Assembly (NCBI GenBank): GCA_020632445.1
Contig: JACKFN010000005.1
Span: 30,786-94,785 of the forward strand
DNA: 64,000 bases
From: Candidatus Nomurabacteria bacterium
GTDB lineage: Bacteria; Patescibacteriota; Patescibacteriia; Magasanikbacterales; UBA922
Direction: 5' to 3'
A model generated the notes under the pieces. It was given only the letters and a program-made list of their open reading frames with translations, made no database searches and was not told the origin of the DNA. How positions within the stretch are numbered: position 1 is the stretch's first letter; every line of letters starts with the position of its first letter. Below are positions 1,752 to 47,904 of the stretch, in pieces. The translations under genes were made by a program, and so were the position numbers.

Positions 1752-2729
1752 ATGATCCTTTTTCTCTACGGACAAGACACGCTTCGATCCAGAAAGCGCC
1801 TGTCTGAAATGATAGCCAAGTTCAAAGAAGACCGCGACCCACAAAGTCTCAACGTGGTATCTTTGGACTGTCAAAAAGTAAAAACTGAAGACACCATATG
1901 GCAGCAAATCCTTTCGAGTCCGTTTCTGGCAGAAAAACGCATGGTTGTCCTCGAAAACCTACTCGTGAGCTCACACAAAGGGCTCCAAAAACAACTCCTT
2001 GAGAGGATCGAAGGTCAAACCTTGCCAGAATCGACGGTACTCGTCTTTTGGGAATCTACAGAAAAGTTCAAAACCAAACTCGCAAAGGAATTCTTTGCAC
2101 GACTGCTCAAAGAAAAATTTGTCCTTCACTTTGAAAATCTCGAAGGGGCAAAACTCTTGGTTTGGGTCAGTGAAATTTTTAAAGAAAATCATCTCTCTAT
2201 AGATAAAAATGCTCTAGTCTTTTTGTGTGACAATGCAGGCCCAGATCTCTGGTCGATTGAATCGGTCGCTGCCCAACTCGTCTCTTACAAACAAGACGAA
2301 GGGGTGGTTTCTTTGAAAGATGTTCAATTGTTTGTTAAAGAAACCTATGATGACAACATCTTTAACATCATTGATAACATTGTCAAAAAAAACACTTCAA
2401 ATGTTTTTTCACAAATCGCGCAAATCTATCGAAACGGCGAAACGCCCCACTATGTCCATGCTATGCTTGTAAGACAAGTCCGAATAATGCTCATGCTCAA
2501 AGATGCGCAAAAGCGAGGAGAGAATCTCTCTGATCCACGCCTGGCAAAAAAACTTTCGCTCCACCCATTTGTCGTGAAAAAAACCACCACCGTGCTACAA
2601 AACTATTCTCTCGAAAAACTTCAAGACTTGCAAAACGACCTTCTCGACATAGACACACAAACAAAAAAGGGCCAAAATGACCCTTCGCTCTTGCTTGATG
2701 TGCTGGTGACCAAACTTGCCAACCATTAG
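1752..2729 (+). CDS. holA: DNA polymerase III subunit delta
   Basis: Start taken at the internal ATG (MILFLYGQDTLRSRKRL...), matching the canonical MIYLFYGED-type HolA N-terminus. About 325 aa with the expected size and domain pattern; the upstream 14 codons of the tracked ORF overlap the GC-rich element. Confidence 0.7.
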   Translation: MILFLYGQDTLRSRKRLSEMIAKFKEDRDPQSLNVVSLDCQKVKTEDTIWQQILSSPFLAEKRMVVLENLLVSSHKGLQKQLLERIEGQTLPESTVLVFWESTEKFKTKLAKEFFARLLKEKFVLHFENLEGAKLLVWVSEIFKENHLSIDKNALVFLCDNAGPDLWSIESVAAQLVSYKQDEGVVSLKDVQLFVKETYDDNIFNIIDNIVKKNTSNVFSQIAQIYRNGETPHYVHAMLVRQVRIMLMLKDAQKRGENLSDPRLAKKLSLHPFVVKKTTTVLQNYSLEKLQDLQNDLLDIDTQTKKGQNDPSLLLDVLVTKLANH

Positions 2730-3964
2730 TTTTCAAACGGTCCAAATTCCCGCTCCATTTGTACAAGCCCTCGCTCTATCCGAAGACTGATCTCTTGCTC
2801 CAGGAGTTCTTTTTCTGCTTGCAACAAACGGATTGTTCTCTCATCTTCTGTTCTGCTCATAAGCATGTCAAGCTCACCAGACTGTCGCTTCAGATCTCGC
2901 TGAGCCACCTTTGCTGCCCACATCCTTCTTTTTTCTGCCGTTGAAACATCAGGCCGAAGCTCCTCACTATACACACGGATTCCTCCTGGTTCATTAATCT
3001 TTTCAAAAATAGCTGCCCTGTCTGCCTCGTCGGCGGCTCGTGAAAATTGTACCTGCTCCCTAGGGGCAATAACACGTGCTCCCCCGGTAACGGAAACCTG
3101 TCCTCCTGCCCTGTCACTGACACCACGAACAAGTTCCTGAACCTTTTGTAATACCGTATCCACACTCTCACTTCCCACCCCCGGCAAAACGAGCAAAAAC
3201 TCATCTCCACTTCGGCGTCCGACTGAGTCCACCCCACGTAAACCAGCCCTGAGTTTTTGAACAACCTCTTGAATAATTTGGTCCCCAACCAAGTGACCAC
3301 GCGCTGGATCATCGTTTATCTTTTTAAAACCATCAATGTCAAAAAAAACGAGAACCAGCCGCTCCCCCTCAGTTCCTTTCTGATCAAGTTTTTCTCTTTC
3401 AATATCAAAGTGGTGCTCTAACCCCTTTTTTGAAAGCCCACCAGTCAACTCGTCCTGGTATTCTTTCTGTTCAAGCTCTACTTTTTCTACTGCTGTTTGC
3501 AAAATATAAGGGCTGAGTTCCCTAACCGTTGGCCGCAAATTAGCCGTAATAGCGTCAACCTCTGATGGAGAGAATGGGGAAGATTCTTGTATGCTTCTTT
3601 CAATATTCCCTGCGAGCGAGTTAAGCGTAGTTTCATCTATCAAGTGGCTCACAACTTCATGTGCTGGTCGATCGGTGGTGTCGCTTAAAATGCTCTCTCG
3701 TATATCATCAAGCACGTTTTTGCTCAATCCAACTTGTTGTGCTTCTTGACGCTCAACCCCTTCAACCAACTTGGAAATCAGGACTCTTTTCACCAAAGAA
3801 CGTTGTATTTCTTCCGCCTCAGCGATAATAGCGTTACGTTTTTCATCGTCAAAAGCGAGTTTCTCAATAAGCTGCCGAGGAAACGGCTCACAGAGCATTT
3901 CAATAATTCCCTCTACTCGCTCACTCTCCCGTTGCGGTGGTCTGTCCATTATTCTTTCTACCAT
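2726..3964 (-). CDS. GGDEF-domain protein (diguanylate cyclase-like) with a degenerate RSGDEF motif
   Basis: C-terminal half holds LVLVFFDIDGFKKINDD...GDQII...RSGDEFLLVLPG, a GGDEF domain in which the first Gly of GG(D/E)EF is Ser. N-terminal half is a coiled-coil/charged region. Stop codon overlaps the holA stop by 4 nt (convergent). Confidence 0.6.
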   Translation of the reverse strand: MVERIMDRPPQRESERVEGIIEMLCEPFPRQLIEKLAFDDEKRNAIIAEAEEIQRSLVKRVLISKLVEGVERQEAQQVGLSKNVLDDIRESILSDTTDRPAHEVVSHLIDETTLNSLAGNIERSIQESSPFSPSEVDAITANLRPTVRELSPYILQTAVEKVELEQKEYQDELTGGLSKKGLEHHFDIEREKLDQKGTEGERLVLVFFDIDGFKKINDDPARGHLVGDQIIQEVVQKLRAGLRGVDSVGRRSGDEFLLVLPGVGSESVDTVLQKVQELVRGVSDRAGGQVSVTGGARVIAPREQVQFSRAADEADRAAIFEKINEPGGIRVYSEELRPDVSTAEKRRMWAAKVAQRDLKRQSGELDMLMSRTEDERTIRLLQAEKELLEQEISLRIERGLVQMEREFGPFEN

Positions 3965-4700: not shown

Positions 4701-5825
4701 CTATTGCCGTATAGGCATAACAAGGTACAAATAATCTTCTTTCCCCTTTCCGCGCATCATACAAGGCGCATCATGAGAATTCATCAAAAATTCCATTTCT
4801 TCACTATCAAGATTTGCCAATCCATCGAGGACGTATCTAAAGTTGAGCAAAATGGCGTTTTCCTCTCCGGCCACTTGCGCTTCCACTTGTGAAGAGTGCT
4901 CACCGGTTTGGCTGCTCATTGAAGCCACCATAACTGCAGACTCAGAAGGACTGAGCGTAAAATTCACTCCGTTTATACCCGTGCTGCTAAACAAACTGGC
5001 CGCTTTGATTTTCTTATGAAACGCATCCACACTCACAATCGCATGTGTTTTAAACTCTGTGGGGATTATTTGTGCATAATCTGGATAACTCCCAGATACC
5101 AGCCGACTCGTTATCTCAAAACTTTCATACCGTACCCCAATCTGATTGTCACTCACCCACATTCGCACTTGTGTTTCCTTTCCAGAATTTTTCACGCTTG
5201 AAAGGAGCCTTGCAACTTCCATTACTGTTTTGATTGGCAAAATACATTGGCGCACATCACTCCCCTGTGCCACCGAAACTTTCTTTTCCGCAAGACGGTA
5301 TGAATCAGTCGCAGCCATTACGAGTCCTTCATACCTGTCGGTAAAAAATCCACAGTACACCCCAGAAAGCTCTGGTCGAATGTCATTTTTGGCGGCGGCA
5401 ATTCCCACTCGTGTTAGGGCATCTGCAAATACGTCTACTAAAATGGTATATACAGAACCTTCTTCTGCTTCTGGAATAATTGGATAATCCTCTGAAGGGC
5501 TTCCCTTAATTTTGGTTGATGAGTCATTACAAGAAACCACCAATTCATTTTCCTCAACGGATATTTCAATTTGTTCATCAGATATGAGTGAAACAAAATC
5601 GTAAAGCGTTTTTGCCGGCACGGTAAATTTTCCCGCTATTTCCACCTTGGCACGCAGACTGCACTTTACCACCATTTCAAGATTGGTACTCACAAACTCT
5701 ACTCTAGATTCTGTTGCGTCAATCAAAACATTACTCAGTATTGGAAGATTGGACTGTTTACCAGCAAGTGGGGCAACTAAATTAAGTGCTCCTACAAGAT
5801 TTTCTTTCGTACAAACAAATTTCAT
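4701..5825 (-). CDS. dnaN: DNA polymerase III subunit beta (sliding clamp)
   Basis: 374 aa, MKFVCTKENLVGALNLVAPLAGKQSNLPILSNVLIDATESRVEFVSTNLEM..., three-domain clamp pattern; sits immediately downstream of dnaA as in most bacteria. Confidence 0.95.
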   Translation of the reverse strand: MKFVCTKENLVGALNLVAPLAGKQSNLPILSNVLIDATESRVEFVSTNLEMVVKCSLRAKVEIAGKFTVPAKTLYDFVSLISDEQIEISVEENELVVSCNDSSTKIKGSPSEDYPIIPEAEEGSVYTILVDVFADALTRVGIAAAKNDIRPELSGVYCGFFTDRYEGLVMAATDSYRLAEKKVSVAQGSDVRQCILPIKTVMEVARLLSSVKNSGKETQVRMWVSDNQIGVRYESFEITSRLVSGSYPDYAQIIPTEFKTHAIVSVDAFHKKIKAASLFSSTGINGVNFTLSPSESAVMVASMSSQTGEHSSQVEAQVAGEENAILLNFRYVLDGLANLDSEEMEFLMNSHDAPCMMRGKGKEDYLYLVMPIRQ

Positions 5826-7642: not shown

Positions 7643-8000
7643 AAAGAAAAACTTTCTTGGCTGAGGGTTGCAAAATTTTGGACTTTTTTGTAAGATGCAC
7701 TGGTCTGGATTCATTTCCCCCAGACGAGCGAGGAACCCATGGCTGGAAAAGGAACAGGGGGCGTGAAGTCCCGTGGTGGGCACCGGACCCGTGCGGCCAA
7801 GCGTCGGTCGCAGCGCAAGCTGAAGGCGCGACGGCGGGGCGAGACCACTCCGGATGCGCCGAGGCCTTCGACGACGCGCAGGTGCTGGTTGTGCGGTCAC
7901 AGGTCGCCCAAGAATCTTCCTCGGTGCGAGAGCTGCAAGACGTTCTTGGGCGCTGCGGTGTAGTTCACTGCAAAGTTTCAACACTCCCACACCACCATAT

Positions 8001-8062
8001 CCCACCTTCAAAATACCAAAAAACACCAACGCTATGGTGTTTTTTGGTATTTTGAAGGTGGG
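8001..8062. repeat. Perfect 28-bp inverted repeat with a 6-nt loop (CCCACCTTCAAAATACCAAAAAACACCA-acgcta-TGGTGTTTTTTGGTATTTTGAAGGTGGG)
   Basis: Read directly; arms are exact reverse complements. The right arm ends in TTGAAGGTGGG, an 11-mer that recurs at 37869 and 40800. Confidence 0.9.
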
Positions 8063-8064
8063 AA

Positions 8065-8538
8065 TTAATAGGCGACAAAGCCGCAGCGACACATGTGATG
8101 CATTGCTGCATCAATGTCAGTCCCCCGCATGGTGTTGGTACGCCTGCAGGTGGCGAGCGGGCACTGCCAACGCCTGGGTGGTAGCTTGCGCAGTGGGTGG
8201 TGAATTCGGCATCTGGCGCAGTAGAAGCATGCGGGCTGGTTTATTTTTCCGCAGCTTGGACAGTGCCAGTTCTGACTGAACTTAATGTGGATGGGTACGA
8301 CTTCCGCTGAACGGAAGATTTCTGGAGGTACAGGCCTGGTTACAGTGCAGCCGTTTCCTTGGCACACTTCGTTTTCCGATCTGTTGAACCACGACCTTCC
8401 GATATGGCAGTGGCTGCAGCTGCAAATCCAGTGCTTTCCGTCGGTGGTCCAGTAAGTGTGCTCAGTGCACAGATGATCATCTGCTCTTGGTACCATGGTG
8501 CGCCACTTCCCGGTTGGTGTTTCTTGTATTGTAGGCAT
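8065..8538 (-). CDS. Hypothetical Cys/His/Trp-rich protein (possible zinc-binding) encoded in the GC-rich island
   Basis: 157 aa from the internal ATG (MPTIQETPTGKWRT...). Multiple CxxC/CxC pairs (WICSCSHCH, HCPSCG, CFYCARC). The TAA stop is immediately followed by CCCACCTTCAA. Frame choice is uncertain because GC-rich DNA keeps other frames open. Confidence 0.3.
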   Translation of the reverse strand: MPTIQETPTGKWRTMVPRADDHLCTEHTYWTTDGKHWICSCSHCHIGRSWFNRSENEVCQGNGCTVTRPVPPEIFRSAEVVPIHIKFSQNWHCPSCGKINQPACFYCARCRIHHPLRKLPPRRWQCPLATCRRTNTMRGTDIDAAMHHMCRCGFVAY

Positions 8539-8589
8539 TTTGAGGAGTTTGTCAATGTGCTTCTTGAGGAGTTTTTGTCTCTGCGAGTG

Positions 8590-8635
8590 GAAACAAAAAA
8601 TCAGTGTATCTGCACTGATTTTTTTTGTTTTGGGT
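8590..8635. terminator. Bidirectional intrinsic terminator hairpin
   Basis: AAACAAAAAATCAGTG-tatc-tgCACTGATTTTTTTTGTTTT: 12-bp stem flanked by A and T runs on either side. Confidence 0.55.
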
Positions 8636-8642
8636 ATGCGAG

Positions 8643-9440
8643 CTACGACCACCCCTCAAGTTTTTCTGCAAAGTGAAAAAGACCGTCAAACATGGCACAC
8701 ATAAATGCTACAATTCCACTGTGTCTAAGCGTGATAACCATAGAAGTTTCTGGTAGGAGAAAGGAAATGCGGTCGCCGTAAATCAAAGCGAGTTCGTTGA
8801 TTGGGATAATAGATTCGGGGAGTGTGCGCAAATCCCAAATGCGTTTTTCAAAGGTGCGGTTCACCTCAGGTGACTGCAAAAATTTTTGTTTTGGTACGGC
8901 AAGAGATTCTTTTGTGAAGATTCCATGTGTGATAATCTCCCTTTTTACTACACGGTCAAAGAAGATGTTCCATTGGTTTGGTGTGAGAAGATCGAGCTCG
9001 TCAATAAGCCCCTTTTTGCCCTCGAGGACACGAAACATAGAGCCCTTTGGAAGCAGAGAGATTTTTTCGTATACTGAAAAGTACCCTTTTTTTGACTCAA
9101 CTACCTCAAATTCGGGTCGTTCACTGGTGACCTTTTGAAGTGACTCAAGTTCCGGTACAAGCAACTTAAGGTCGAGGGTCAGTTTGGTGAGATCTGTTGC
9201 CAGCTGTGCGGGCGGCTTAGCGTTAAAGTGCTGAATTTTTCCTCGCGGAGACTGAAAGAGGAGACCCTTTTCCTGCAGGTTTTTGATGTGAAAATAAGCT
9301 GCAGTTCTGGTCATTTTTACTTCTTTTGCAATTTCAGAGGTGCTGGGATTTTCCAGTGAGAGCACCGCCAGGTAGATGTCGACTTCCTGTTTGGAAAGAG
9401 AAAAGTGTTTGAGGACAGAGTAGATATTGGAGATTTCCAT
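8643..9440 (-). CDS. TrmB-like winged-helix transcriptional regulator (paralogue 1 of 7)
   Basis: Start at the internal ATG (MEISNIYSVLKHFSLSKQEVDIYLAVLSLENPSTSEIAKEVKMTRTAAYFHIKNLQEKGLL), an N-terminal TrmB-type HTH, plus a roughly 150-aa C-terminal domain ending in the family-shared hydrophobic-x-x-LW motif (FHFAEKLEGW). Confidence 0.6.
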   Translation of the reverse strand: MEISNIYSVLKHFSLSKQEVDIYLAVLSLENPSTSEIAKEVKMTRTAAYFHIKNLQEKGLLFQSPRGKIQHFNAKPPAQLATDLTKLTLDLKLLVPELESLQKVTSERPEFEVVESKKGYFSVYEKISLLPKGSMFRVLEGKKGLIDELDLLTPNQWNIFFDRVVKREIITHGIFTKESLAVPKQKFLQSPEVNRTFEKRIWDLRTLPESIIPINELALIYGDRISFLLPETSMVITLRHSGIVAFMCAMFDGLFHFAEKLEGWS

Positions 9441-9568
9441 AGGTTTCTTTTTTACCGAGTGTATCACAACAAGTGGTTTTGTCAAATATTTTTTTCACCA
9501 CAAAGTGTTGACATAATACATAAAAAAGGGTAAAGTTACTTGAATTGTTAAATATAATTTTCAATTGC

Positions 9569-10645
9569 ATGAAAAAAGCAATCTATGCGCTGTGTGCTGT
9601 GGCGCTCATCACCCTTGCCGGGTGTGGAAAAGCAGAACAATCGTCCATGGCTGAGCAAGGACCAATAAAAATTGGTTTTATCGCACCAATATCCGGTGAC
9701 CTTGCCAGCCTTGGAAGTGACGCCTTGGTATCAGCACAGATCGCGGTCGATGAGGTCAACCAAGCTGGTGGGGTGGATGGAAGACCTATCGAGCTCGTTG
9801 TAGAAGATGGAAAATGTAGTGCCAAAGATGCACCACAGGCGGCTAGCAAGTTGATGAATGTGGACAATGTGCAGGTAATTATGGCCATGTGTTCACCAGA
9901 AGTGGTTGCCTCGTCTGGAATGGCAAATCAGCAAAAGCGAGTACTTATTTCGTCGTGTGCCTCGGCTCCAAACGTAACGGATGCAGGAGACTATGTTTTT
10001 CGTACGTATCCTTCGGATAGTTTCCAAGGGAAGTTTGCAGCGCAGCACGCGTATAATACACTTGGAAAACGTAAAGCCGCGATTTTGTCTGTTCAAAATG
10101 ACTGGGGAGTTGGACTTCGTGATGTGTTTGCTCAGACGTTTGAAGCGCTTGGAGGTGACGTTGTGGTCATCCAGGAGCATACGCAAGATTCTCGAGATAT
10201 GCGTTCTCAGATTTCCAAGATAAAAGAGGCAAATCCAGACATCATCTATTTTCCATCATTTACAGAGCCGAGTTTGGTTGGACTTAAACAAATCAGGGAT
10301 TTGGAAGTAGATGTGGAAATACTTGGTGGTGATGCATGGAGCGATGCAAAACTCCAAGAGAGTTCATATGCTCAAGGGGCACAATATGTACAACCTCTTT
10401 CAAACTACAGTGAGTCGTGGAAGGAAAAAATGTTGGCGCGAGGTGCTGGTGCAACTGTTTGCGCTCCGTCAGCCTACGACAATGTAAAAATCATTGCCGA
10501 TATAATTGGAAGTGTTGGCGAAGATGGTGAAAAAATCAAAAATGCGCTTTATGATGTCAAAGGATATGCCGGCGTGGCAGGAGATATTACCTTTGATGAG
10601 AATGGGGATATTACCCAGGCTCAGTATGAGGTGGTAGAACTCTAA
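9569..10645 (+). CDS. LivJ/LivK-family (type I periplasmic binding protein) substrate-binding lipoprotein, probably amino-acid binding; no cognate permease or ATPase adjacent
   Basis: MKKAIYALCAVALITLAGCG lipobox signal, then IKIGFIAPISGDLASLGSDALVSAQIAVDEVNQAGGVDGRPIELVVEDGKC..., the hallmark N-terminal lobe of branched-chain amino-acid binding proteins. Confidence 0.75.
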   Translation: MKKAIYALCAVALITLAGCGKAEQSSMAEQGPIKIGFIAPISGDLASLGSDALVSAQIAVDEVNQAGGVDGRPIELVVEDGKCSAKDAPQAASKLMNVDNVQVIMAMCSPEVVASSGMANQQKRVLISSCASAPNVTDAGDYVFRTYPSDSFQGKFAAQHAYNTLGKRKAAILSVQNDWGVGLRDVFAQTFEALGGDVVVIQEHTQDSRDMRSQISKIKEANPDIIYFPSFTEPSLVGLKQIRDLEVDVEILGGDAWSDAKLQESSYAQGAQYVQPLSNYSESWKEKMLARGAGATVCAPSAYDNVKIIADIIGSVGEDGEKIKNALYDVKGYAGVAGDITFDENGDITQAQYEVVEL

Positions 10646-10696
10646 CGGTTTTATCGAAATACAAAAAAGAAAAACCCGCACGATTGTGCGGGTTTT

Positions 10697-11443
10697 TTAC
10701 GTTGGTACATCATCAGGCTCAGGTAGCAAATCCCAAAGCATTTCAAACGTTGCGCGAAAAACATCTACCATTGCCGGGATCTGGATGACCACAGCGAGCG
10801 AGGAAAGCTTTGGACTGACCACCATCACTTTATCATCATAGATATCCATGGTTGATTTAAAGGTATAGCCTTCGGGCGTGTATTTCCATGTTCGACAAAA
10901 GCTTGGATCCGTTGGGTTATTGTATTTTGAATCAATACTTAAGATGAGTTTGGTGTGTACTTTCTTTTGCCCGCGGCGTTTTCGAAATTCTACAAACCAA
11001 TCCGTATCAAGTTGTTCCCAATAAACGGCACTCCCTATATCGTAGTATGTTTTGCCTGCGTATTCATCAAGAATGTTTTCATAAAATCTTTTGAGCTCTG
11101 CGAGCGTCTCTATGTATTGCAGCCCAAAGGGGGTTTGCGAGGATCCTTGAAGAGACTGGAGCATTGGCACGATGCTCTCAAAAGCTTCAATCTTTTTTTC
11201 TTGTTGACGTATGACATTTGCGGGTTTTTGCGGATAAAAGAGTTTTACATTGTTTTTGAAATACGTGGTAGCAAATCCTTTTTGAGAAAGTGACTTGAGG
11301 ATTGGGTAGACGGTCGTGCGTTTTACGCCCATGCTGCTGGCCACTTTGCTGGCAGGGGCCCCACCCAAAGAAAGTAGAGTAAGGTAGGCATCTACCTCCC
11401 CGTCAGAAAGACCAAGTTTTTTGATAATGTCGTGGTTTTTCAT
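10697..11443 (-). CDS. TrmB-like winged-helix transcriptional regulator (paralogue 2)
   Basis: MKNHDIIKKLGLSDGEVDAYLTLLSLGGAPASKVASSMGVKRTTVYPILKSLSQKGF...; C-terminus FRATFEMLWDLL. Confidence 0.6.
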   Translation of the reverse strand: MKNHDIIKKLGLSDGEVDAYLTLLSLGGAPASKVASSMGVKRTTVYPILKSLSQKGFATTYFKNNVKLFYPQKPANVIRQQEKKIEAFESIVPMLQSLQGSSQTPFGLQYIETLAELKRFYENILDEYAGKTYYDIGSAVYWEQLDTDWFVEFRKRRGQKKVHTKLILSIDSKYNNPTDPSFCRTWKYTPEGYTFKSTMDIYDDKVMVVSPKLSSLAVVIQIPAMVDVFRATFEMLWDLLPEPDDVPT

Positions 11444-11598
11444 AGATATTCACAGCATACTGTCAAAAAAATACAACAGCAAACACGCTCTAACAAAAAC
11501 ATATCTAAACATTAACAAAAAGTCAACAGGCTGTGACGCAAACCATAGACACAAAAGCATCAGTGAGTATAATAAGCGGTAATTTTTAGAAACATTTT

Positions 11599-12729
11599 AT
11601 GAAAAGGTATATTCTTTTTCCCGCCCTGCTGCTCGCGTTTGCCGTGTGTTTTTCTGGTTGTGACAAGCCGGCTGTACCAGAGACATCTGAAAGCATTCGG
11701 ATTGGATTTATTGGGCCGATCACCGGTCCTGCAGCCAAGTATGGGGCCGATAAGGCAGCGCTTTTGGCACTTGAAGAGATTAATGCCGCTGGCGGAGTTA
11801 ATGGGCAAAAGCTTGAGTTTATCATGGAAGATGGAAGGTGTGAGGCCAAGGATGCACTCGATGCGATAAACAAACTTATCAATGTTGACAACGTTCAAGT
11901 GGTGCTTGGTGGACACTGCAGTCCTGAGACCGTTGCCATTGCCCCGGTAGCAGAGCAAAACCAGGTACTTTTACTGGCGTCTCTTTCATCGAACCCAGAC
12001 ATTCGCACCATGGGTGATTATGTGTTTCGAACCACGGCAGAAAGTGTGGCACGAGTTCCAAACACTACGCAAGAAATGAGAGAGACCTATAACATTGAGA
12101 AGCTTGCGATTTTGAGTGAGGAGACCAGCTACGCTCGGCCAATCGCCGATGGCATTGCCAAAGGATTTGAAGCCCGCGGTGGAAGTGTGGTGGCTTTTGA
12201 GTCCATCCTCCCAGAAGACAAGGATTTTCGATCACAGCTTCTCAAAGTGAAACAAGAAAATCCAGATGCGATTTATATATCCACCCAAGCACCAGACAAA
12301 GCGATTCTCATCTTACAGCAGATGCAGGAGCTTGGAATGGAAATGCAGATTTTTGGAAACGAAAGTGTTGGAAGCATTCCACTTATTGAGGAGCTTGGAG
12401 AAAGCGCAAATGGAATCCTTTTTGATTCAGCTTTGTATGATAAAACCCAACCAGAGGTGGCGCAGTTTATTGAAAAGTATCAAAGTCGATATGGAAGTGA
12501 GCCACCATACGGGCTTTTGACCGCTGAGTCCTATGATGCCGTATATATCATAGCCCAGGCTATAGACGAGGTTGGCACAGATCCAGAGAAGGTGAGAGAT
12601 TATCTTTATTCCGTTAAGGAGTATCACGGCGCATCTGGAACCTTTGGTTTTGATGAAAACGGTGATGTGAAAAGGAGATTTATTCTCAGTGAGATTCGTG
12701 ACGGTCGGATAGTACAATTGGCTGATTAA
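11599..12729 (+). CDS. LivJ-family substrate-binding lipoprotein (orphan)
   Basis: MKRYILFPALLLAFAVCFSGCD lipobox; IRIGFIGPITGPAAKYGADKAALLALEEINAAGGVNGQKLEFIMEDGRCEAKD... Paralogous to 9569..10645. Confidence 0.75.
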   Translation: MKRYILFPALLLAFAVCFSGCDKPAVPETSESIRIGFIGPITGPAAKYGADKAALLALEEINAAGGVNGQKLEFIMEDGRCEAKDALDAINKLINVDNVQVVLGGHCSPETVAIAPVAEQNQVLLLASLSSNPDIRTMGDYVFRTTAESVARVPNTTQEMRETYNIEKLAILSEETSYARPIADGIAKGFEARGGSVVAFESILPEDKDFRSQLLKVKQENPDAIYISTQAPDKAILILQQMQELGMEMQIFGNESVGSIPLIEELGESANGILFDSALYDKTQPEVAQFIEKYQSRYGSEPPYGLLTAESYDAVYIIAQAIDEVGTDPEKVRDYLYSVKEYHGASGTFGFDENGDVKRRFILSEIRDGRIVQLAD

Positions 12730-16543: not shown

Positions 16544-17302
16544 TTACTCACTCGAGGATTTTTTATTTTTGGATGGAGTACTGGATTTCCAAAGAAACGC
16601 AAAGATGTGTTTGAAGGCGTTTGCGATAGTGTTGTTTTTTATGAGGATGCCCGAAGGGTTTTTCGGGTCAAATGCAAAGATCGCGAGTTTATCATCGTAT
16701 ACATTTATTTCAATCCCCAAATCTTTAAAGAGATCAATAAATTTCATTTCGCGCAGCAAAGCACTTGCCTGAGAAATATCTTTTTTTCCAATGGCACTCT
16801 CTGGAAGAAGACTTTTGACTTTGACACCTTTTTCGATTCTCTTTTTGAAGTAATTGTTTCGCAAGAATTCATCCCCCACTACCTTGTAAGCCTGCTCATA
16901 GTCGGTTAGGGCGTAAATAGTTTTTTCTTTGTTATCTCTCCAGGTGTCGTCATAAAGATTCATAACCCCATCGAGTCCTTCGTAGTATTTTATTTCAGAT
17001 AGCAGTGTTTGAGGGCGTCTTGGCTGCGTGTGGGTCCATTCAATAAATGCCTTCGTTTCTTGTATGGTTTGGTCTTGTTTGCGCTTGGCCCAGGAGGAGA
17101 GTTCTTGGTGTGAGAGTGCTTTGTACACGGTGTGTCCCTCTATTTGTATTTTGCTCACGAGGCCTCTTGAAAGTAATTTTTCAAGTATTGGGTACAGTGA
17201 TGTGCGATTGATGAGAATGATTTTTGAAAGGTCGGAAACAGAAGAGGGACCATTTTGTAGTAGGCCGGAAAGAGTTTTTTTTTCTTTTTCGCTGAGAAGC
17301 AT
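16544..17302 (-). CDS. TrmB-like winged-helix transcriptional regulator (paralogue 3, solo)
   Basis: MLLSEKEKKTLSGLLQNGPSSVSDLSKIILINRTSLYPILEKLLSRGLV...; C-terminal FKHIFAFLWK. Confidence 0.55.
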   Translation of the reverse strand: MLLSEKEKKTLSGLLQNGPSSVSDLSKIILINRTSLYPILEKLLSRGLVSKIQIEGHTVYKALSHQELSSWAKRKQDQTIQETKAFIEWTHTQPRRPQTLLSEIKYYEGLDGVMNLYDDTWRDNKEKTIYALTDYEQAYKVVGDEFLRNNYFKKRIEKGVKVKSLLPESAIGKKDISQASALLREMKFIDLFKDLGIEINVYDDKLAIFAFDPKNPSGILIKNNTIANAFKHIFAFLWKSSTPSKNKKSSSE

Positions 17303-31976: not shown

Positions 31977-32429
31977 TCAAGGCTTGGCTCTTTTTTCCTG
32001 TTGTAGTCCAAGAAAGATGAAAAATGCCCCGAAGGTAATGAGAATGTCGGCAATGTTGATAACAGAGGTAAAAAAGAGAAAGTAATCGGTGGTAAAGCCA
32101 AAAAGTATACGGTCGGCAAAGTTCGAGATGGCTCCTGAGACGACCCAAAACACTCCCAAAGTGGTCATAAAATTCGGATTGCTCAGCCCACGAAAGAACA
32201 CAAACAGAAACAAGAGAATAAAGGGAGTTAAGAGAAGGATGAGATAGGGCGGAAAGGGAAGACTAAAGGCTATACCGGTATTTTCGAAGTATTTCCACCC
32301 AAGCATTTCGTGAAATGTGGTCCAGGAAAATGCTTGGTTGGCTCGCGCCCAGTGTTTGAGGAATTGGTCAAGAGCAATAAAAAAACCGCCTAAAAGCGCA
32401 TAGCGAATTGGGCGGCTTAGATTTTTCAT
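31977..32429 (-). CDS. lspA: Lipoprotein signal peptidase (signal peptidase II)
   Basis: 150 aa, 4 TM; conserved ENTGIAFSL and ISNFADRI (catalytic Asp motifs). Confidence 0.85.
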   Translation of the reverse strand: MKNLSRPIRYALLGGFFIALDQFLKHWARANQAFSWTTFHEMLGWKYFENTGIAFSLPFPPYLILLLTPFILLFLFVFFRGLSNPNFMTTLGVFWVVSGAISNFADRILFGFTTDYFLFFTSVINIADILITFGAFFIFLGLQQEKRAKP

Positions 32430-35594: not shown

Positions 35595-36596
35595 TTATTG
35601 TGGTTGAAAACTGGTGTGTAGTGATTTTTTAAGGGCATTTAAAATTGGCAGAGAGAATATTTTAGGTAGTGAAAAAATAGGGAGTACCTTCATCGAGGTA
35701 ATTTCATTTCCAAATTGTTTGTAGATCTCTTCGGTGATAAGTGTAACATCTTCATTTTTTTCTACATCAATGCCAAGTTCAAAGTCCCATTCTCCTACAC
35801 CTTGTAGAAAATGAACGACATTTGGGTGTTTTTCTGAGAATGATTGTAATTTTTTTCGCATGGTTTTGTCTGATGTATTGCAAAGGAGAAAGAGTTCATA
35901 CATTTGTGTTCCTCCTTTTACATGATCATAAGCATAAATATTGCCTGCGATAACTTTATTTGCTTCGAGTTTTTTTATTCTCTTTTTGATAGTGGATGGT
36001 GGCTGTTGAAGTAGCTTTGAAATGTCGTATGAAGAAAGTCCTCCATTTTTTTCAAGAGCGTAGGCAATCCTTAAATCAAGATCATCATGAGGGACGTGTG
36101 TACGTGTTTCAAATATGGTAGGTTTCATTAGAGGAACATTTGGAGAAAAAAATTTTCGTGTGTATAAAGTAACAAACAGTCGTACGTGAATGCTTTTGTG
36201 CAAAAAGACGTTGCCAAATTCTTCACTAACGTTGTCCATCATGTCAGTAACGTCAATGACGCTTTTTGCGCGGAATGCGAGTGCATATTGGTATTCTCCC
36301 CCAAGCTCAATTACCCAAGGAACATCTTGAGAGTCTAAAAAACGGTCAAGGATTTTTTTGCGTGTTGCACTATCTGGTGTTTGCAAGGAAAAGTAAACAC
36401 CGTACTCTGTGTAGCCAAAGGGACACAGGTTTACGAGCGCAACTTGATGGATAATTCCAGACTGCTTGAGTTTGCTCAAGGTATAAGTAATGTTGTGGCT
36501 TTTATAACCTGTCTGTTTTGCAAGTTCACGCACTGACATTTTCGCATTCATCATACTGTACGCGAGTACTTTTTTCTCTTTTGCACTGAGTTTCAT
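35595..36596 (-). CDS. Transcriptional regulator with two winged-helix (Lrp/AsnC- or MarR-like) domains
   Basis: Two HTH-like segments (LSAKEKKVLAYSMMNAKMSVRELAKQTGYKSHNITYTLSKLKQSGII; LDLRIAYALEKNGGLSSYDISKLLQQPPSTIKKRIKKLEANKVIAG); divergent from an SBP lipoprotein gene. Confidence 0.5.
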   Translation of the reverse strand: MKLSAKEKKVLAYSMMNAKMSVRELAKQTGYKSHNITYTLSKLKQSGIIHQVALVNLCPFGYTEYGVYFSLQTPDSATRKKILDRFLDSQDVPWVIELGGEYQYALAFRAKSVIDVTDMMDNVSEEFGNVFLHKSIHVRLFVTLYTRKFFSPNVPLMKPTIFETRTHVPHDDLDLRIAYALEKNGGLSSYDISKLLQQPPSTIKKRIKKLEANKVIAGNIYAYDHVKGGTQMYELFLLCNTSDKTMRKKLQSFSEKHPNVVHFLQGVGEWDFELGIDVEKNEDVTLITEEIYKQFGNEITSMKVLPIFSLPKIFSLPILNALKKSLHTSFQPQ

Positions 36597-36687
36597 ATTT
36601 TGGTTACTTAATTCGTATAATTATAGCTAAAGTTATAAAAAATTGCAATTTTTTATCAATAAGGTATATATTTTACTATATTCATTA

Positions 36688-37833
36688 ATGCAAAATATGA
36701 GGCTAAGATTGATAATTTTGTCCATTGCAGTATTGGCTTTTGTAGGGTGTGGGCAGTCACGTACTGGTGAGATACCGGTAGAGAGTATTTCTGTGGGCGG
36801 TGTATTTGCGCTTACCGGGTTGGGTGCGGCTATTGGTGAGCAGGAGTATATGGGTGCCCAGCTTGCTGTGGAAGAGGTAAATACGGCTGGTGGAATAGAT
36901 GGTAAGCAAGTAAAGTTTGTTGTCGAGGATGTGTCGCTCGACAAGCTTTCTTCCGGACCCAGTGCTGTTCAAAAGCTTGTGAATGTTGATAATGTTGTAG
37001 GAATAGTGGGGCCTACCTGGGACGAGCCTGCTGCGCAAATTCTTCCTATTATTGAAGAAGCGCGTATTCCCATCCTTATGCCAGATCAGACTGTGGATGT
37101 AGAATCTTTGCAGTCATTTTCGTTTGCCTTTTCTACGTGGTATGACAATCGTGTTGGAGTCCGTGAGCTTTTGCGGTATGCTCAGAGTCATGATTTAAAG
37201 CGAATTGCGATCGTGCGATCTGTGGCTGGAGGATTTTGGCAATTTACCAGGGATGAATTTGTGATGCGCGCACCCGAATTTGGTGTGGAAGTGGTAGAGG
37301 ATATAGATGTGGGGAACCCACTTGAACTTGATTTTCGCACCGTTCTCATAAAGGTAAAGGAAAAAAGACCAGATGCAATTTTTGCAGTCGTCACCGATTA
37401 TAATGAATGTGCTTTTCTTAAGCAGATGAAGGAACTGGGAATAAATGTTCCACTTTTGTCAACGGAATCTTCTGGGACGGCAGCAGCACTTGGACAGTGT
37501 CCAGACTTAATGGAAAATGTATTTTTCAGTACGCCGCATAAGACCCATCTCTATAAAGATTTTGCACAAAGGTTCAAAGCAAAGTTTGAACATGAGCCAC
37601 AGTTTCCGTCAGTGGCAACTTCATATGATGCTATGAAAATTTTGCTTTCGGTAATAGAAGAAACAGGCTCAACTGATGGCAAAGTGCTGCGTGAAGGGCT
37701 CAAACAGCTCGATGAATATCAGGGAGTGAGTTTTGAGAGTATATATTTTGATGAAATGGGATTTGTGAAAACTCCAGAAGATGCTTTTGAAATGATGACG
37801 GTTCGTGAAGGTGCGTTTGTGAGCGTTCCGTGA
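36688..37833 (+). CDS. LivJ-family substrate-binding lipoprotein (orphan)
   Basis: Start at the internal ATG (MQNMRLRLIILSIAVLAFVGCGQ lipobox); GGVFALTGLGAAIGEQEYMGAQLAVEEVNTAGGIDGKQVKFVVEDV..., a type I PBP fold. Confidence 0.7.
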   Translation: MQNMRLRLIILSIAVLAFVGCGQSRTGEIPVESISVGGVFALTGLGAAIGEQEYMGAQLAVEEVNTAGGIDGKQVKFVVEDVSLDKLSSGPSAVQKLVNVDNVVGIVGPTWDEPAAQILPIIEEARIPILMPDQTVDVESLQSFSFAFSTWYDNRVGVRELLRYAQSHDLKRIAIVRSVAGGFWQFTRDEFVMRAPEFGVEVVEDIDVGNPLELDFRTVLIKVKEKRPDAIFAVVTDYNECAFLKQMKELGINVPLLSTESSGTAAALGQCPDLMENVFFSTPHKTHLYKDFAQRFKAKFEHEPQFPSVATSYDAMKILLSVIEETGSTDGKVLREGLKQLDEYQGVSFESIYFDEMGFVKTPEDAFEMMTVREGAFVSVP

Positions 37834-38621: not shown

Positions 38622-39722
38622 TTATTGAATTGATACGGGTTTTCCACCCACCACCTTAATTTTCTGGAAATCCTTGGTAAACCCACCCTTTCCATCCGAG
38701 AGAAGTTTTCCTGATACTCCATCCCAAGTAGTGATTTCGTTTAAATACTTTGCCAAAGTATCGCTGTTTGTCGAATCGGTTACCTCGATCGCCTCCGCGA
38801 GCATCATCATCGCATCGTATGCAGAATCTGCTCCAATATCGATAGGTTCATTATAGGTTGACTCAAAGCGCTTTCGAAAATCATCAGTTGGCGTCAGCGA
38901 TGTAAGATACGTGAGTCCATCAAACGCACCTTGCGCTGCATCAATCATTTTTTGATCCATGGTAATCGAATACATGGGGAGTTCAATCCTAAACTCGCGC
39001 AGTTTTTGTGCATATAGCACACCGAGATTGTAGTTTCCATTGGTGAATACCACTGCGTCGAGTGATGCATCATTTTTTATTTTGGTGATGTCAGTGAGGA
39101 CGTCCTTCGTTTCAACTCCTGGTTCAGTCAAAAATCCTACTGCGCCACCAAGTTGCTCGAAGCGACTTTTGAAGGCCTGGGTTTGCGCTGTAACCCAGAC
39201 TTGCTGTGCAGCAAGCAGTGCAACATTTCTTTTTCCAGCAGCATAGACCACATCAGCGAGTTTGGCAGAAAGAAATGCATCATGTGGCCAAGTGTTGAAG
39301 AAGTATTCGCTGCTTTCATTGAAGTCGGCAAGACCAAGTGATGGCGAAATGAAGATAGTTTTATCTTGTTTTGCAGGCTCGGACATGGCAAGGCCGGTGT
39401 TAGACCACGTCCCACCAACTATCATGTTAATTTCGTCAATTTTTGTCAGTTTATTGTAGGCTGAAACTGCGGTTTTGGCATCTCCTTTGGAATCTTCATA
39501 AATAACATCTAGTTTTTTTCCATCAATTCCTGTTTTGTTTATGTCTTTGAGGGCAAGCTCGATACCTTTTTGCGTGGCGGTCCCCCAGGCGGCGCCTTCA
39601 CCAGAGAGGATGAGGACACTTCCTATTTTGATGGTTTTGTCTGTTTCTGTTTTCGGAGTTTTGGCTGCACAACCTGACACGAGAAGCGCAACAATAATCA
39701 ATGCGAAAGTGATTTTTTTCAT
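38622..39722 (-). CDS. LivJ-family substrate-binding lipoprotein (orphan)
   Basis: MKKITFALIIVALLVSGCAAK lipobox; IKIGSVLILSGEGAAWGTATQKGIELALKDINKTGIDGKKLDVIYEDSKGD... Confidence 0.75.
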   Translation of the reverse strand: MKKITFALIIVALLVSGCAAKTPKTETDKTIKIGSVLILSGEGAAWGTATQKGIELALKDINKTGIDGKKLDVIYEDSKGDAKTAVSAYNKLTKIDEINMIVGGTWSNTGLAMSEPAKQDKTIFISPSLGLADFNESSEYFFNTWPHDAFLSAKLADVVYAAGKRNVALLAAQQVWVTAQTQAFKSRFEQLGGAVGFLTEPGVETKDVLTDITKIKNDASLDAVVFTNGNYNLGVLYAQKLREFRIELPMYSITMDQKMIDAAQGAFDGLTYLTSLTPTDDFRKRFESTYNEPIDIGADSAYDAMMMLAEAIEVTDSTNSDTLAKYLNEITTWDGVSGKLLSDGKGGFTKDFQKIKVVGGKPVSIQ

Positions 39723-39987
39723 AGAGTTATGAGAGTAAATAAAATGGAGCCCAGAAGGGCTCCGTGCAAGTCACTCTCAAAATCTAAAGGCGAATAAAGA
39801 TTGTGAGAAGTGTCTTGCAAGCAACACTCCTGTTTCGCCTTTAAAAGTTGTTATCTTTGACATGGTATTATATGCGAAAAAGAGACAAATGTCAATAATG
39901 TCATAACAATATAGATACAAATTTATTTAAAGATAAACAAAAAAATGCTGTTGACAATACATCAACAACATGCTATGGTGTACATAT

Positions 39988-40749
39988 ATGATACAAGAAA
40001 CGCTCAAGCATCTGGGTCTTACTGAAAAGGAAATTCAGATATACCTTGCAATTTTGCAGCATGGTCAGATTGGTGCCACGCAGATTGCCAAGTACACTCA
40101 GATAAATCGAACCACGGTATATAGTGTGGCAAAAGAGCTTCTTCGAAAGAACTTGATTGCTGAGGACCTCGCGTCACCTGTTGCAAAATTTGTGGCACTC
40201 CACCCATCTACGATTGAGTCGCAGATAAAACGAGAGGAAGAAAAATTGCATGACAAAAAACGTTGGGCCATGAAGGCTGTTCGTGAGCTTAACACCTTCA
40301 CTCAGAGCACAAAGTATTCTGTGCCACGCATTGTGTTTGTGGAAGAGGAAGATGTAGAAGCGCATTTGTATAAGCAGGCAGATGTTTGGAACAAAAGTAT
40401 TCTCGACAACAATACAATGTATTGGGGATTCCAGGATCGGCATTTTGTCAAGCACTATGAGCATTGGATAGACGACTATTGGGCAAAGTTTCCCTCATCT
40501 AAACAAGTTTCTTTGAGATTGGTGAGCGACGAGGAAGCCGAAAGACTCAAAGGGAAAAAGTACCCAAGGCGTCAGATTAAATTTTGGGAAAAGGCAAAAG
40601 ACTTTACGGCAACAACCTGGGTCATGGGAGATTACGTAACGATGATCGTTACGGAGAAGCGACCTCATTATTTGGTGGAAATATATGATGTGACACTTGC
40701 ACATAATCTGCGTGAAGTGTTCAAGGGATTGTGGGAAGAGATTGATTGA
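39988..40749 (+). CDS. TrmB-like winged-helix transcriptional regulator (paralogue 4)
   Basis: Start at the internal ATG (MIQETLKHLGLTEKEIQIYLAILQHGQIGATQIAKYTQINRTTVYSVAKELLRKNLI); C-terminal FKGLWEEID; promoter-like TTGACA-17-TATGGT upstream. Confidence 0.6.
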   Translation: MIQETLKHLGLTEKEIQIYLAILQHGQIGATQIAKYTQINRTTVYSVAKELLRKNLIAEDLASPVAKFVALHPSTIESQIKREEEKLHDKKRWAMKAVRELNTFTQSTKYSVPRIVFVEEEDVEAHLYKQADVWNKSILDNNTMYWGFQDRHFVKHYEHWIDDYWAKFPSSKQVSLRLVSDEEAERLKGKKYPRRQIKFWEKAKDFTATTWVMGDYVTMIVTEKRPHYLVEIYDVTLAHNLREVFKGLWEEID

Positions 40750-46283: not shown

Positions 46284-47033
46284 TTAATCTATTTTCGGCA
46301 TAACACGGGTTGTCTGCCATAGCACACTAAAGAGATTTTTTTGTGTCTGAGAGTAATCGGTGGATTCTATAATAAGGGCAAACCCCTCACGCTTTGTACT
46401 GAGTACAACTACTTTGTTGTCATAAAGATATGTTGAGGTAGGAAAGATCATCTCAGCTGGTGCAAAGTGAACCGTGCGCAGCTCCTTGTCACTCGAGGCC
46501 CAGTCCTGGTCAATATCTTTGTCCTGGGAGCGTATGACATCAAGATGAATACCTAGGGATATTCGCTGCTGGATATGCTCATCCATAAAGGATTTTCCAA
46601 CGGTCTTGTAAAGATCCTCCATGGAAAGAATGGCACAAAGTTTTCTATTTTTGACGGTAAGTATATCGTTGAAAACAGATTGCATGCCATCTTGTCCCTC
46701 AAATATTCTTGTCCTAGGCTTGGTACCATTTGGGTTATAGAGTGCCATGAGATCTGGCAATGATTCATCAAGCTTTCTTTGCTTGCGACGAAGAAGGGAT
46801 TGAAGCATGTTCGGATTTTCTGCTGTATATATGCGAGTTCTGCCTTGCAAGACATAACTAACCACACCTATACTGCACAGTTGTTGAAGGATCTCATGTG
46901 TGGTGGTTCTGGGAAGCTGCGCATGATTGGCAACATCCTGTGCAGAGCCTGATCCAATCTCAAGAGTCGCAATAAAGACTTTTGCCTTTGATTTGTCGAT
47001 CCCAAATTCGCTCAATGCAGAGTAAATTGACAT
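46284..47033 (-). CDS. TrmB-like winged-helix transcriptional regulator (paralogue 5, solo)
   Basis: MSIYSALSEFGIDKSKAKVFIATLEIGSGSAQDVANHAQLPRTTTHEILQQLCSIGVV...; C-terminal LFSVLWQTT. Confidence 0.6.
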   Translation of the reverse strand: MSIYSALSEFGIDKSKAKVFIATLEIGSGSAQDVANHAQLPRTTTHEILQQLCSIGVVSYVLQGRTRIYTAENPNMLQSLLRRKQRKLDESLPDLMALYNPNGTKPRTRIFEGQDGMQSVFNDILTVKNRKLCAILSMEDLYKTVGKSFMDEHIQQRISLGIHLDVIRSQDKDIDQDWASSDKELRTVHFAPAEMIFPTSTYLYDNKVVVLSTKREGFALIIESTDYSQTQKNLFSVLWQTTRVMPKID

Positions 47034-47166: not shown

Positions 47167-47904
47167 TTGTACCATATGTTAGACACGATGATAACAGAAC
47201 TCTGTATTGAGTTGGCAAATCACCGGAGTATGAAGCCTCTCAAGTCCAGAAATGCTCAACCAGACGAGTTTCTATGCTTCGTCTGTGAAAGAGTTGATAG
47301 TGCTAGAGTGTTTCTCGACTTACTTAAAAAGATGATTCATGTTTGCCAAGGTGATCAAGATCTCCTACTTCGAAAGGCAATAGAAGAAAACCTCCATGAT
47401 GAGCGTGGGGTTGGAAAAGGAAAAAGTGCCTCACATGATAAGTGGCGGGAGGATTACTTAGAAGGTATCCAAAAGCTTCACCATGAACGTGTATGCTGCT
47501 GCGACCATACTTGCCACTTTGTGTACAAGCAGGTATTTCGTGATGCTGTCATGAGGGGAGACAAAGGAGAAATGCTTGGGGTTTTGCTCTATCTTGAGCG
47601 AGTAATCCCCATCGAATTTGCATTTATTAGAAGCTATCAGGATAAGGTATTTTGCGGAATTTTCGTGTATTCCCAGATAGATACTCATCAACAACGTGCA
47701 ATCAAGAGAAAGCTTCGGCGGTATCTGGATGATCATATCGTTCACGATGCTGTAGATCACTACCCAAAACTCCTGCAGGCAATCCAGTTAAGTGGCAGTG
47801 ACTTATCCATGCAGGAGAAAATAGCATATGGCGCCAAGATCATCCATCGTGCAAAGTTGCTCAGCTACGAAACACATTTTCGCAAAAGAAAAACAGGCGT
47901 TTAA
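47167..47904 (+). CDS. Heme-oxygenase-like fold protein (TenA/PqqC/CADD-type iron-containing redox enzyme family), tentative
   Basis: 245 aa with spaced E/H/D ligand-like motifs (EENLHDERG...HDKWREDYLEGI...HDAVDH), all-alpha composition. Confidence 0.35.
   Translation: MYHMLDTMITELCIELANHRSMKPLKSRNAQPDEFLCFVCERVDSARVFLDLLKKMIHVCQGDQDLLLRKAIEENLHDERGVGKGKSASHDKWREDYLEGIQKLHHERVCCCDHTCHFVYKQVFRDAVMRGDKGEMLGVLLYLERVIPIEFAFIRSYQDKVFCGIFVYSQIDTHQQRAIKRKLRRYLDDHIVHDAVDHYPKLLQAIQLSGSDLSMQEKIAYGAKIIHRAKLLSYETHFRKRKTGV

Follow-up and report, generated by a model that had tools for sequence, protein, structure and literature searches.

In Escherichia coli, Lrp regulates livJ and livKHMGF, and several binding proteins of the Liv system are common to one translocator, as we propose here for a set of bacterial lipoproteins. 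TrmB, a winged-helix regulator of Thermococcus litoralis and Pyrococcus furiosus, is encoded within the operon of a binding-protein-dependent trehalose/maltose ATP-binding cassette (ABC) transporter, which it represses, acting at a palindrome in the promoter of the binding-protein gene; in the related TrmBL2, which behaves as a chromatin protein and global repressor, the 70 C-terminal residues with the sugar-binding site are missing (PMC4158304). We analysed a 64-kb stretch of DNA (hereafter the window) from the replication-origin region of a bacterium of the Candidate Phyla Radiation (CPR, or Patescibacteria), in which four genes for substrate-binding lipoproteins related to LivJ (B1 to B4) each have a winged-helix regulator gene immediately upstream and in divergent orientation. 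Precedents exist for each element: transporter genes with a local regulator at their side, ABC translocators that use several binding proteins, an ABC operon controlled by TrmB, and liv genes controlled by Lrp; what is new is the combination, namely short bacterial regulators of the TrmBL2 type associated one-to-one with LivJ-type lipoprotein genes, recurring in CPR bacteria and DPANN archaea. The pairing of regulator and binding protein is, hence, a modest variant of a known arrangement and no new system. A literature search retrieved no paper on TrmB and Patescibacteria, and none of the papers listed combined TrmB with 'Candidate Phyla Radiation'; the liv genes of DPANN came up solely in metabolic reconstructions. 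CPR bacteria and DPANN archaea are believed to rely on other cells for building blocks such as amino acids, and the way they choose and regulate their imports is largely obscure.

We propose, with a probability of about 0.6, that the window encodes individually regulated substrate-binding lipoproteins feeding one shared, unlinked ABC importer of the Liv type. B1 to B4 would be the substrate-binding proteins of this hydrophobic amino acid/amide importer, the LivH, LivM, LivG and LivF components of which would be encoded elsewhere and common to all of them. Each binding-protein gene would be under its own local divergent regulator, three of these being of the TrmBL2 type and one a fused Lrp/AsnC protein. 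By binding between or over the two predicted -35 boxes, the regulator would control both its own gene and the binding-protein gene, and a given binding specificity would be produced only in the presence of its substrate or of a related intracellular signal. The model includes inferences on four points, namely that the regulators bind the intergenic DNA, that ligands control them, which substrates are bound and that this genome has livHMGF.

The four pairs had been recognised in an earlier note on the window, two in tandem at 8643-12729 and two more at 35595-37833 and 38622-40749, and we could confirm in all of them a regulator and a Peripla_BP_6 lipoprotein lying back to back. Pair 1 is composed of R1 (8643..9485, minus strand) and B1 (9545..10645, plus strand); these positions hold, although the true starts are likely those of shorter proteins, at 9440 for R1 (265 aa) and 9569 for B1. 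R2 (10697..11443, minus) and B2 (11599..12729, plus) form pair 2, followed at a distance by R4 (35595..36596, minus) with B3 (36643..37833, plus) and by B4 (38622..39722, minus) with R5 (39970..40749, plus, likely start 39988). With 50 genes in random order and orientation, the chance of finding four out of four binding-protein genes so paired is ~4e-6. The control regions shared by the partners measure 60-250 bp in the window, and the intergenic regions 34-160 bp in most of the pairs compared. The repetition of this module, also proposed in the note, extends to other genomes. It is kept in the closest genome of the reference collection, Candidatus Magasanikbacteria CG11_big_fil_rev_8_21_14_0_20_39_34 (hereafter the sister genome; 65-73% protein identity and the same gene order), where pairs 1 and 2 lie beside dnaA in unchanged order, with an R1 orthologue 73% identical in the same position, and where further pairs are also present; it is found in 20 further CPR and DPANN loci as well.

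The description of the binding proteins as LivJ-like type I proteins with a lipobox was borne out. All four matched Peripla_BP_6 (E 5e-51 for B1, 4e-62 for B2, 2e-45 for B3 and 4e-44 for B4) over nearly its full length (from profile positions 1-2 to 323-342 of 343), and their intact open reading frames (ORFs) encode a signal peptide with a lipobox at its end (LAGC, FSGC, FVGC and VSGC, respectively). The lipobox cysteine is located at residues 18-36 of the ORFs as listed, and at residue 19 of B1 when counted from its likely start; lspA, encoding signal peptidase II, is also in the window (31977-32429). The best solved relatives of B2 are E. coli LivK (1usg) and LivJ (1z15), with E ~1e-37. With an NCBIfam score of 176.7 bits against a cutoff of 477, the binding proteins are not equivalogs. 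B1 and B2, which belong to the LivJ/LivK family, keep the disulfide pair of LivJ (Cys53-Cys78). At the positions of the four LivJ residues for the alpha-group of the ligand (Ser79, Thr102, Tyr202 and Glu226), alignments of only 25-30% identity place S, S, F and D in B1; S, S, Q and E in B2; D, Q, T and E in B3; and S, G, G and T in B4. Since the pocket positions of the LivJ-family proteins B3 and B4 diverge while B1 and B2 keep LivJ-type residues at 79, 102 and 226, the ligands of the four probably differ from one another. The four paralogues are mutually 25-37% identical, i.e., they are old. The resemblance to E. coli LivJ/LivK and LivHMGF includes the affinity of B2 for LivK/LivJ and the presence of a regulator of the Lrp family, R4, beside B3. 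In contrast with the E. coli system, the proteins of the window are lipoprotein-anchored, the Lrp-like protein is tandem-fused and locally encoded, at least four paralogues have diverged pockets, and the genes are here unlinked to livHMGF.

To place these pairs in context, we compared 79 loci from other genomes with 10-kb flanks, plus two fetched earlier; 31 CPR and 13 DPANN loci were analysed, and their ORFs were assigned with locally built hidden Markov models (HMMs) to the TrmB-like, binding-protein, LivH/M or LivG/F classes. The scan of these loci relied on a 12-sequence alignment of binding proteins, a 30-sequence alignment being too diverse. A divergent pair of TrmB-like and binding-protein genes was present in 12 of the 31 CPR loci and 8 of the 13 DPANN loci, and most TrmB-like genes (23/27 in CPR and 13/21 in DPANN loci) were divergently paired with a binding-protein gene. 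The transporter genes livH/M or livG/F were found within 10 kb in 15 of the 20 pair-bearing loci (8/12 in CPR, 7/8 in DPANN). For example, Pfam-annotated gene calls gave the order LivH/M, LivG, TrmB, four binding proteins, TrmB, two binding proteins and LivF in locus L009, and LivH, LivM, TrmB, a binding protein, an unassigned 124-aa gene and TrmB in a DPANN contig (L093). In conventional bacteria, the same binding-protein family occurs beside livHMGF without TrmB. The pairs of the window resemble those of the CPR and DPANN liv clusters with multiple binding proteins (L009/L024 of Buchananbacteria, L017 of an archaeon, L046) in that they share the same binding-protein clade (35-48% identity, the range in which B2 has relatives in both CPR bacteria and DPANN archaea) and the divergent TrmB-like partner. 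However, in those clusters the pairs are interleaved with livH, livM, livG and livF, whereas here and in the sister genome they are dispersed near the origin, with no transporter genes in view. Because homologous pairs elsewhere sit inside livHMGF clusters, the term 'orphan', applied to the binding proteins in the earlier note, is accurate for their position in the window and for nothing beyond position: by family, these proteins belong to the ordinary binding components of ABC importers, and they are most likely unlinked transporter parts and not a new receptor class, a lesson for annotation. The note had left the choice between a shared transporter elsewhere and standalone receptors, and the comparative data favour the shared transporter.

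Five regulators of the window are TrmB-like, scoring 37.4 (R1), 54.1 (R2), 43.6 (R3), 51.7 (R5) and 35.1 bits (R6) with Pfam TrmB PF01978, for which the curated gathering cutoff is 25.6 bits. Two of them are solo regulators. R3 (16544..17302, minus) has no adjoining binding-protein gene, and tblastn around it revealed no binding-protein remnant nearby; its closest relative among the fetched loci (31% identity) has a binding-protein gene as partner and lies within a liv cluster (L024/L009). R6 (46284..47033, minus) is divergent from a 245-aa gene (47167-47904) for which Pfam and NCBIfam gave no family match, and its closest relative (35%, L043) is located directly after livH-livM. An AlphaFold model of R2 (40 sequences, pLDDT 90) had as best PDB folds the full-length TrmBL2 structures 5bpd, 5box and 5bqt (E 5e-13; 257-267 columns for 5bpd and 5box), then TrmB 3qph, and also matched proteins of the Phospholipase-D (PLD) fold at E 5e-4 or weaker over ~190-250 columns. 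The TrmB-like profile A3 aligned with residues 12-262 of TrmBL2 5bpd (E 4e-7), and R1, R3, R5 and R6 matched a full-length local TrmB-like HMM (E ~1e-58 to 1e-70; 8e-65 for R1 and 2e-58 for R5). Judging from these profile and model matches, the architecture of all five is that of a short TrmBL2, with a winged helix, a long helix and a PLD-like domain.

Like TrmB, these proteins are winged-helix regulators encoded beside a component of a binding-protein-dependent ABC importer; they are homologous over PF01978, and the equivalent of the DNA-contacting Tyr50 is kept in four of the five copies. Unlike TrmB, they are only ~250 aa long (248-280 aa, as compared with 338-341 aa for TrmB and TrmBL1), they are found in a bacterial host, and their partners are type I binding proteins of the LivJ-like, amino-acid class and not MalE-like ones, with one regulator per binding-protein gene and not per operon. 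They also lack the sugar-binding subdomain of TrmB, and a search with PF11495, the effector domain of TrmB, had no match in any regulator copy (E up to 0.01). The C-terminal structure prediction suggested in the note thus gave a PLD-like TrmBL2 fold for R2 and no sugar-binding subdomain, and the idea of a ligand-sensing module is, as regards the C-terminal domain of the regulators, conjectural. Scores against the NCBIfam equivalogs were far from the respective cutoffs (17-40 bits for TrmB/TrmBL1, with cutoffs of 500-650; 21.9 bits for TrmBL2, with a cutoff of 530). The C-terminal hydrophobic-x-x-LW motif that had been noticed in these proteins occurs as F-x-x-L-W in four of the five, the copy at 8643 (R1) having a variant. 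In alignment A3, F233 is invariant and W237 is conserved at 90% or more, and the motif corresponds to 'FNEYW' of the final TrmBL2 helix; by this alignment, it is a family-wide structural element and no specific ligand motif. A PLD-type HKD catalytic motif in the C-terminal domain was rejected upon reading the R2 sequence and the A3 consensus by eye, its spacing being off and its histidine unconserved.

Several observations weigh against the shared-importer model. TrmBL2, the closest solved relative of the regulators, has no known ligand and functions as a non-specific protein of chromatin and as a global repressor, and the lack of both PF11495 and the sugar-binding subdomain goes in the same direction. 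R2 falls in an orthologue group that is conserved among CPR bacteria (45-57% identity in Uhr-, Magasanik-, Kerfeld- and Moranbacteria), and in three other CPR genomes its orthologues are not beside a binding-protein gene, nor do they have any conserved neighbour or partner there, although one of them is again near dnaA; pair 2 may, therefore, be a lineage-specific juxtaposition. The earlier note was right that no permease or ATPase gene follows the binding-protein genes in the 64 kb: neither a gene of either kind nor a remnant was detected in the window with Pfam (all ORFs of at least 150 aa), the local HMMs (at least 80 aa) or tblastn, and none was present in the ~42 kb seen of the sister contig. 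The divergences of regulators and binding proteins are correlated (Mantel r = 0.52, p = 5e-4), but the correlation falls to r = 0.23 without close pairs. Because of this drop, and since the nearest homologue of B3 (48% identity, L051) has a TrmB-like and not an Lrp-like partner, regulators and binding proteins have evidently exchanged partners. Finally, the shared operator that the note had looked forward to in the divergent intergenic regions did not materialise, as comparison of the pair intergenic regions yielded no convincing operator common to them.

Some of these facts could be accommodated if the TrmBL2-like proteins were general nucleoid or global repressor proteins, adjacent to binding-protein genes as a result of shared horizontal transfer or of insertion hot spots. 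TrmBL2 is indeed their best structural and sequence match and the effector subdomain is missing, the R2 orthologue group is CPR-wide and elsewhere unlinked to binding-protein genes, and as many as five copies occur within 64 kb near the origin. Nevertheless, we consider this explanation unlikely. The TrmB-like paralogues are old and only 20-29% identical to each other, a divergence that one would anticipate for specific regulators but not for a single abundant chromatin protein; regulator and binding-protein genes consistently lie back to back, across short intergenic regions; and the unrelated fused Lrp/AsnC family takes the same position at other binding-protein genes, which therefore points to a regulatory slot. 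The window proteins share with TrmBL2 (PF0496/TK0471) the length class and the architecture, in which a winged helix and a long helix precede a PLD-like domain whose last helix bears F-x-x-[LY]-W. In contrast with TrmBL2, to which they are ~19% identical, they are multiple, highly diverged and positionally tied to binding-protein genes, which suggests local, specific regulation and not genome-wide coating.

The occupant of this slot at B3, R4, had been described as a dual winged-helix, Lrp-like regulator, and both of its halves did prove to be of the Lrp/AsnC type. It matched HTH_24 twice (47.8 bits) and an HTH of the AsnC type (32.6 bits), and its score with TrmB PF01978 (21.2 bits) was under the cutoff. 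The two profile halves (3-123 and 166-315) each align to nearly complete Lrp/AsnC structures, effector domain included (residues 20-146 of PH1519, E 7e-22; 2-120 of LrpA; 6-125 of AsnC), so that R4 is best described as a tandem-fused Lrp/AsnC-type regulator with two units of winged helix plus RAM domain, even if PF01037 was not reached at E 0.01. By analogy, an amino-acid effector is plausible for R4. Homologues of R4 are divergently paired with binding-protein genes in four of the compared loci (L086, L039, L026 and L041). In addition, two binding-protein genes of the DPANN contig L093 are each preceded by a divergent gene of a third type (244-1155 and 8972-9880), encoding ~302 aa, one of which has a weak MazE/AbrB-like match at its N-terminus. 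The regulator slot upstream of binding-protein genes may accordingly be filled by at least three unrelated families.

It can also be imagined that the lipoproteins are true orphans in a cell devoid of any Liv translocator, serving as standalone surface receptors, for instance in signalling to a membrane sensor such as the GGDEF protein encoded at 2726-3964 or in contact with host cells. We regard this as improbable. The absence of permease and ATPase genes from the window and from the stretches of the sister genome seen, the dispersed instead of clustered pairs, the reduced genomes of CPR bacteria and the conservation of the GGDEF protein near the pairs in both genomes would all be compatible with it. 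However, most homologous pairs are inside livHMGF clusters, B1 and B2 keep the LivJ disulfide and the residues for the alpha-group of the ligand, and nothing links the GGDEF protein to the lipoproteins; moreover, unlinked binding-protein genes are common among ABC importers. As for the GGDEF protein itself (minus strand), it carries a diguanylate-cyclase domain preceded by a 168-aa N-terminal region without assignment, its gene adjoins holA near the origin, with a conserved counterpart at the corresponding position of the sister genome.

Decay of a liv cluster into these pairs, with the transporter lost and the binding-protein genes turning into pseudogenes, is very improbable, for although R3 and R6 have lost or never had a partner while their closest relatives are cluster-associated, all four binding proteins are encoded by undisrupted ORFs and have a signal peptide and a lipobox, conservation in the sister genome is 65-73% and includes the promoters, and tblastn shows no remnants of permease or ATPase genes. 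All three alternatives are less supported than individually regulated lipoproteins feeding a shared importer.

A broader version of the shared-importer model can be put forward, which we hold as tentative. An almost invariant LivHMGF would be served by fast-evolving binding-protein cassettes exchanged between CPR bacteria and DPANN archaea, each with its own regulator, either of the TrmBL2 type and sensing the cognate solute via the PLD-like domain or of the fused Lrp type; in the window, the cassettes would be detached from the transporter genes and gathered near the origin, one of them with a new terminator/antiterminator leader. When the LivH permease of a Buchananbacteria locus (L024 1831-2703) was used as query, the best 120 of 5105 matches, which are clusters at 90% identity from many CPR lineages, were 75-83% identical. 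This permease is unusually conserved in CPR bacteria, more than 120 clusters having 76-83% identity. By contrast, binding proteins are ~40% identical and regulators ~20-35%, a difference in conservation in keeping with a single conserved translocator to which diversified binding proteins deliver. The nearest neighbours of binding proteins are frequently across the divide between bacteria and archaea. By best match, binding proteins, TrmB-like regulators and liv permeases from CPR bacteria are interspersed with those from DPANN archaea (loci L013-L057, e.g., L041, L017 and L015). Because of this intermixing, exemplified by B4, for which a DPANN archaeon provided the nearest homologue in the fetched set (46%, L041), the sequence data suggest that liv components have been exchanged between CPR and DPANN.

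If the shared-importer model is true, one regulator per binding protein around a conserved translocator would be a compact way of tuning uptake to the supply by the host or the community, and the bacterial proteins of the TrmBL2 type, now without assigned ligand or target, would gain a role. The cassettes offer concrete triplets of regulator, operator and ligand.

The tandem pairs 1 and 2 both have predicted back-to-back divergent promoters of the sigma-70 type, with ~20 bp between the -35 boxes. In the control region of pair 1 (9458..9536), a consensus scan located TTGACA(9485)-16-TACACT on the minus strand and TTGACA(9508)-17-TAAAGT on the plus strand; the sister genome has partly kept the -35 region and a flanking A/T tract, and the promoter function is putative. 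In that of pair 2 (11498..11573), the promoter scan placed TTGACT(11526)-17-TATGTT on the minus strand and TAGACA(11546)-16-TATAAT on the plus strand, and the sister genome has kept both -35 boxes as well as the -10 box. The two modules are separated by a terminator-like hairpin (10670..10697, scored on the minus strand) with a 12-bp stem flanked by an A-run and a T-run. A palindrome GTCA-N8-TGAC is found at 11522-11537, and its class occurs in 4 of 37 pair intergenic regions, with 0.04 expected; since it overlaps -35-like hexamers, it is a weak lead as a possible operator and not a finding. The sequence GTCAACAG occurs in two pair regions, but it is not enriched in the window as a whole (4 matches, with 2.6 expected). 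Reading the intergenic regions by eye, without a pattern search, revealed no TACT-N3-AGTA site.

B4 differs from the other binding-protein genes, the leaders of which have no unusual structure, by a structured leader of ~130 nt (39737..39895 on the minus strand, promoter included). The promoter is sigma-70-like, with TTGACA at 39895-39890, a 17-nt spacer and TATAAT at 39872-39867. The leader comprises a P1 stem, a conserved hairpin (39831-39806), and a terminator hairpin (39763-39746) with a U-run (39745-39737) that sit just before the start codon, and its predicted fold has a minimum free energy of -51.2 kcal/mol (z -6.8 with respect to shuffled sequences). A homologous leader exists in the sister genome (L016 9834-9941; E 1e-11), upstream of a non-orthologous binding-protein gene whose product is only 25% identical to B4. 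The two leaders have in common two 100%-identical blocks of 27 and 23 nt, and their P1 stem is held by different, compensating sequences; RNAalifold on both predicted an alternative helix between block 1 and block 2 that would sequester the 5' arm of the terminator. Rfam contained no family matching this leader, and an exact 20-mer of it had one occurrence in JGI metagenomes, in the sister lineage. A leader peptide was considered and rejected, as a 28-codon ORF has no counterpart in the L016 leader when both sequences are read by eye. On the strength of two sequences only, the B4 leader is possibly a new transcription attenuator or riboswitch-like RNA.

The position of the window at the replication origin is indicated by dnaN (4701-5825, minus), dnaA (from 6128 to ~7500, minus) and a switch in the sign of the GC skew near 6 kb. 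As listed, the dnaA ORF (654 aa) continues through the 7700-8063 region and probably extends too far. A GC-rich island (7700-7899; 64-71% GC in a genome of 44% GC) and a perfect 29-bp inverted repeat with a 6-nt loop (8000-8063) lie between the true start of dnaA and the next ORF (8065-8652); Rfam gave no family match for the 7700-8063 region. The ORF at 8065-8652 (minus, 195 aa), between dnaA and R1, encodes a zinc-ribbon-like protein with many cysteine pairs of the CxxC type and without Pfam match; gene prediction in the metagenome assembly includes it, and no gene is predicted at this place in the sister genome.

The earlier note had counted seven regulators in the window. Five TrmB-like proteins and one fused Lrp/AsnC protein account for six of them, and HMM searches upheld its domain calls for 10 of 11 proteins, the exception in both respects being the ORF at 63117-63956 (R7, minus strand). 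R7 was rejected as a TrmB-like protein, having no match in Pfam or NCBIfam and hhalign probabilities against the TrmB-like profile of 4% for its sequence alone and 17% for the profile of its family; the winged-helix signal at its N-terminus is weak at most, and its single-sequence structure model (pLDDT 36) was unusable. It belongs instead to a nameless family of ~280-aa proteins with 919 clusters (E up to 1e-3), in which W117, H119, H140 and W142 are nearly invariant and the consensus contains a 'YNPHxWF' stretch.

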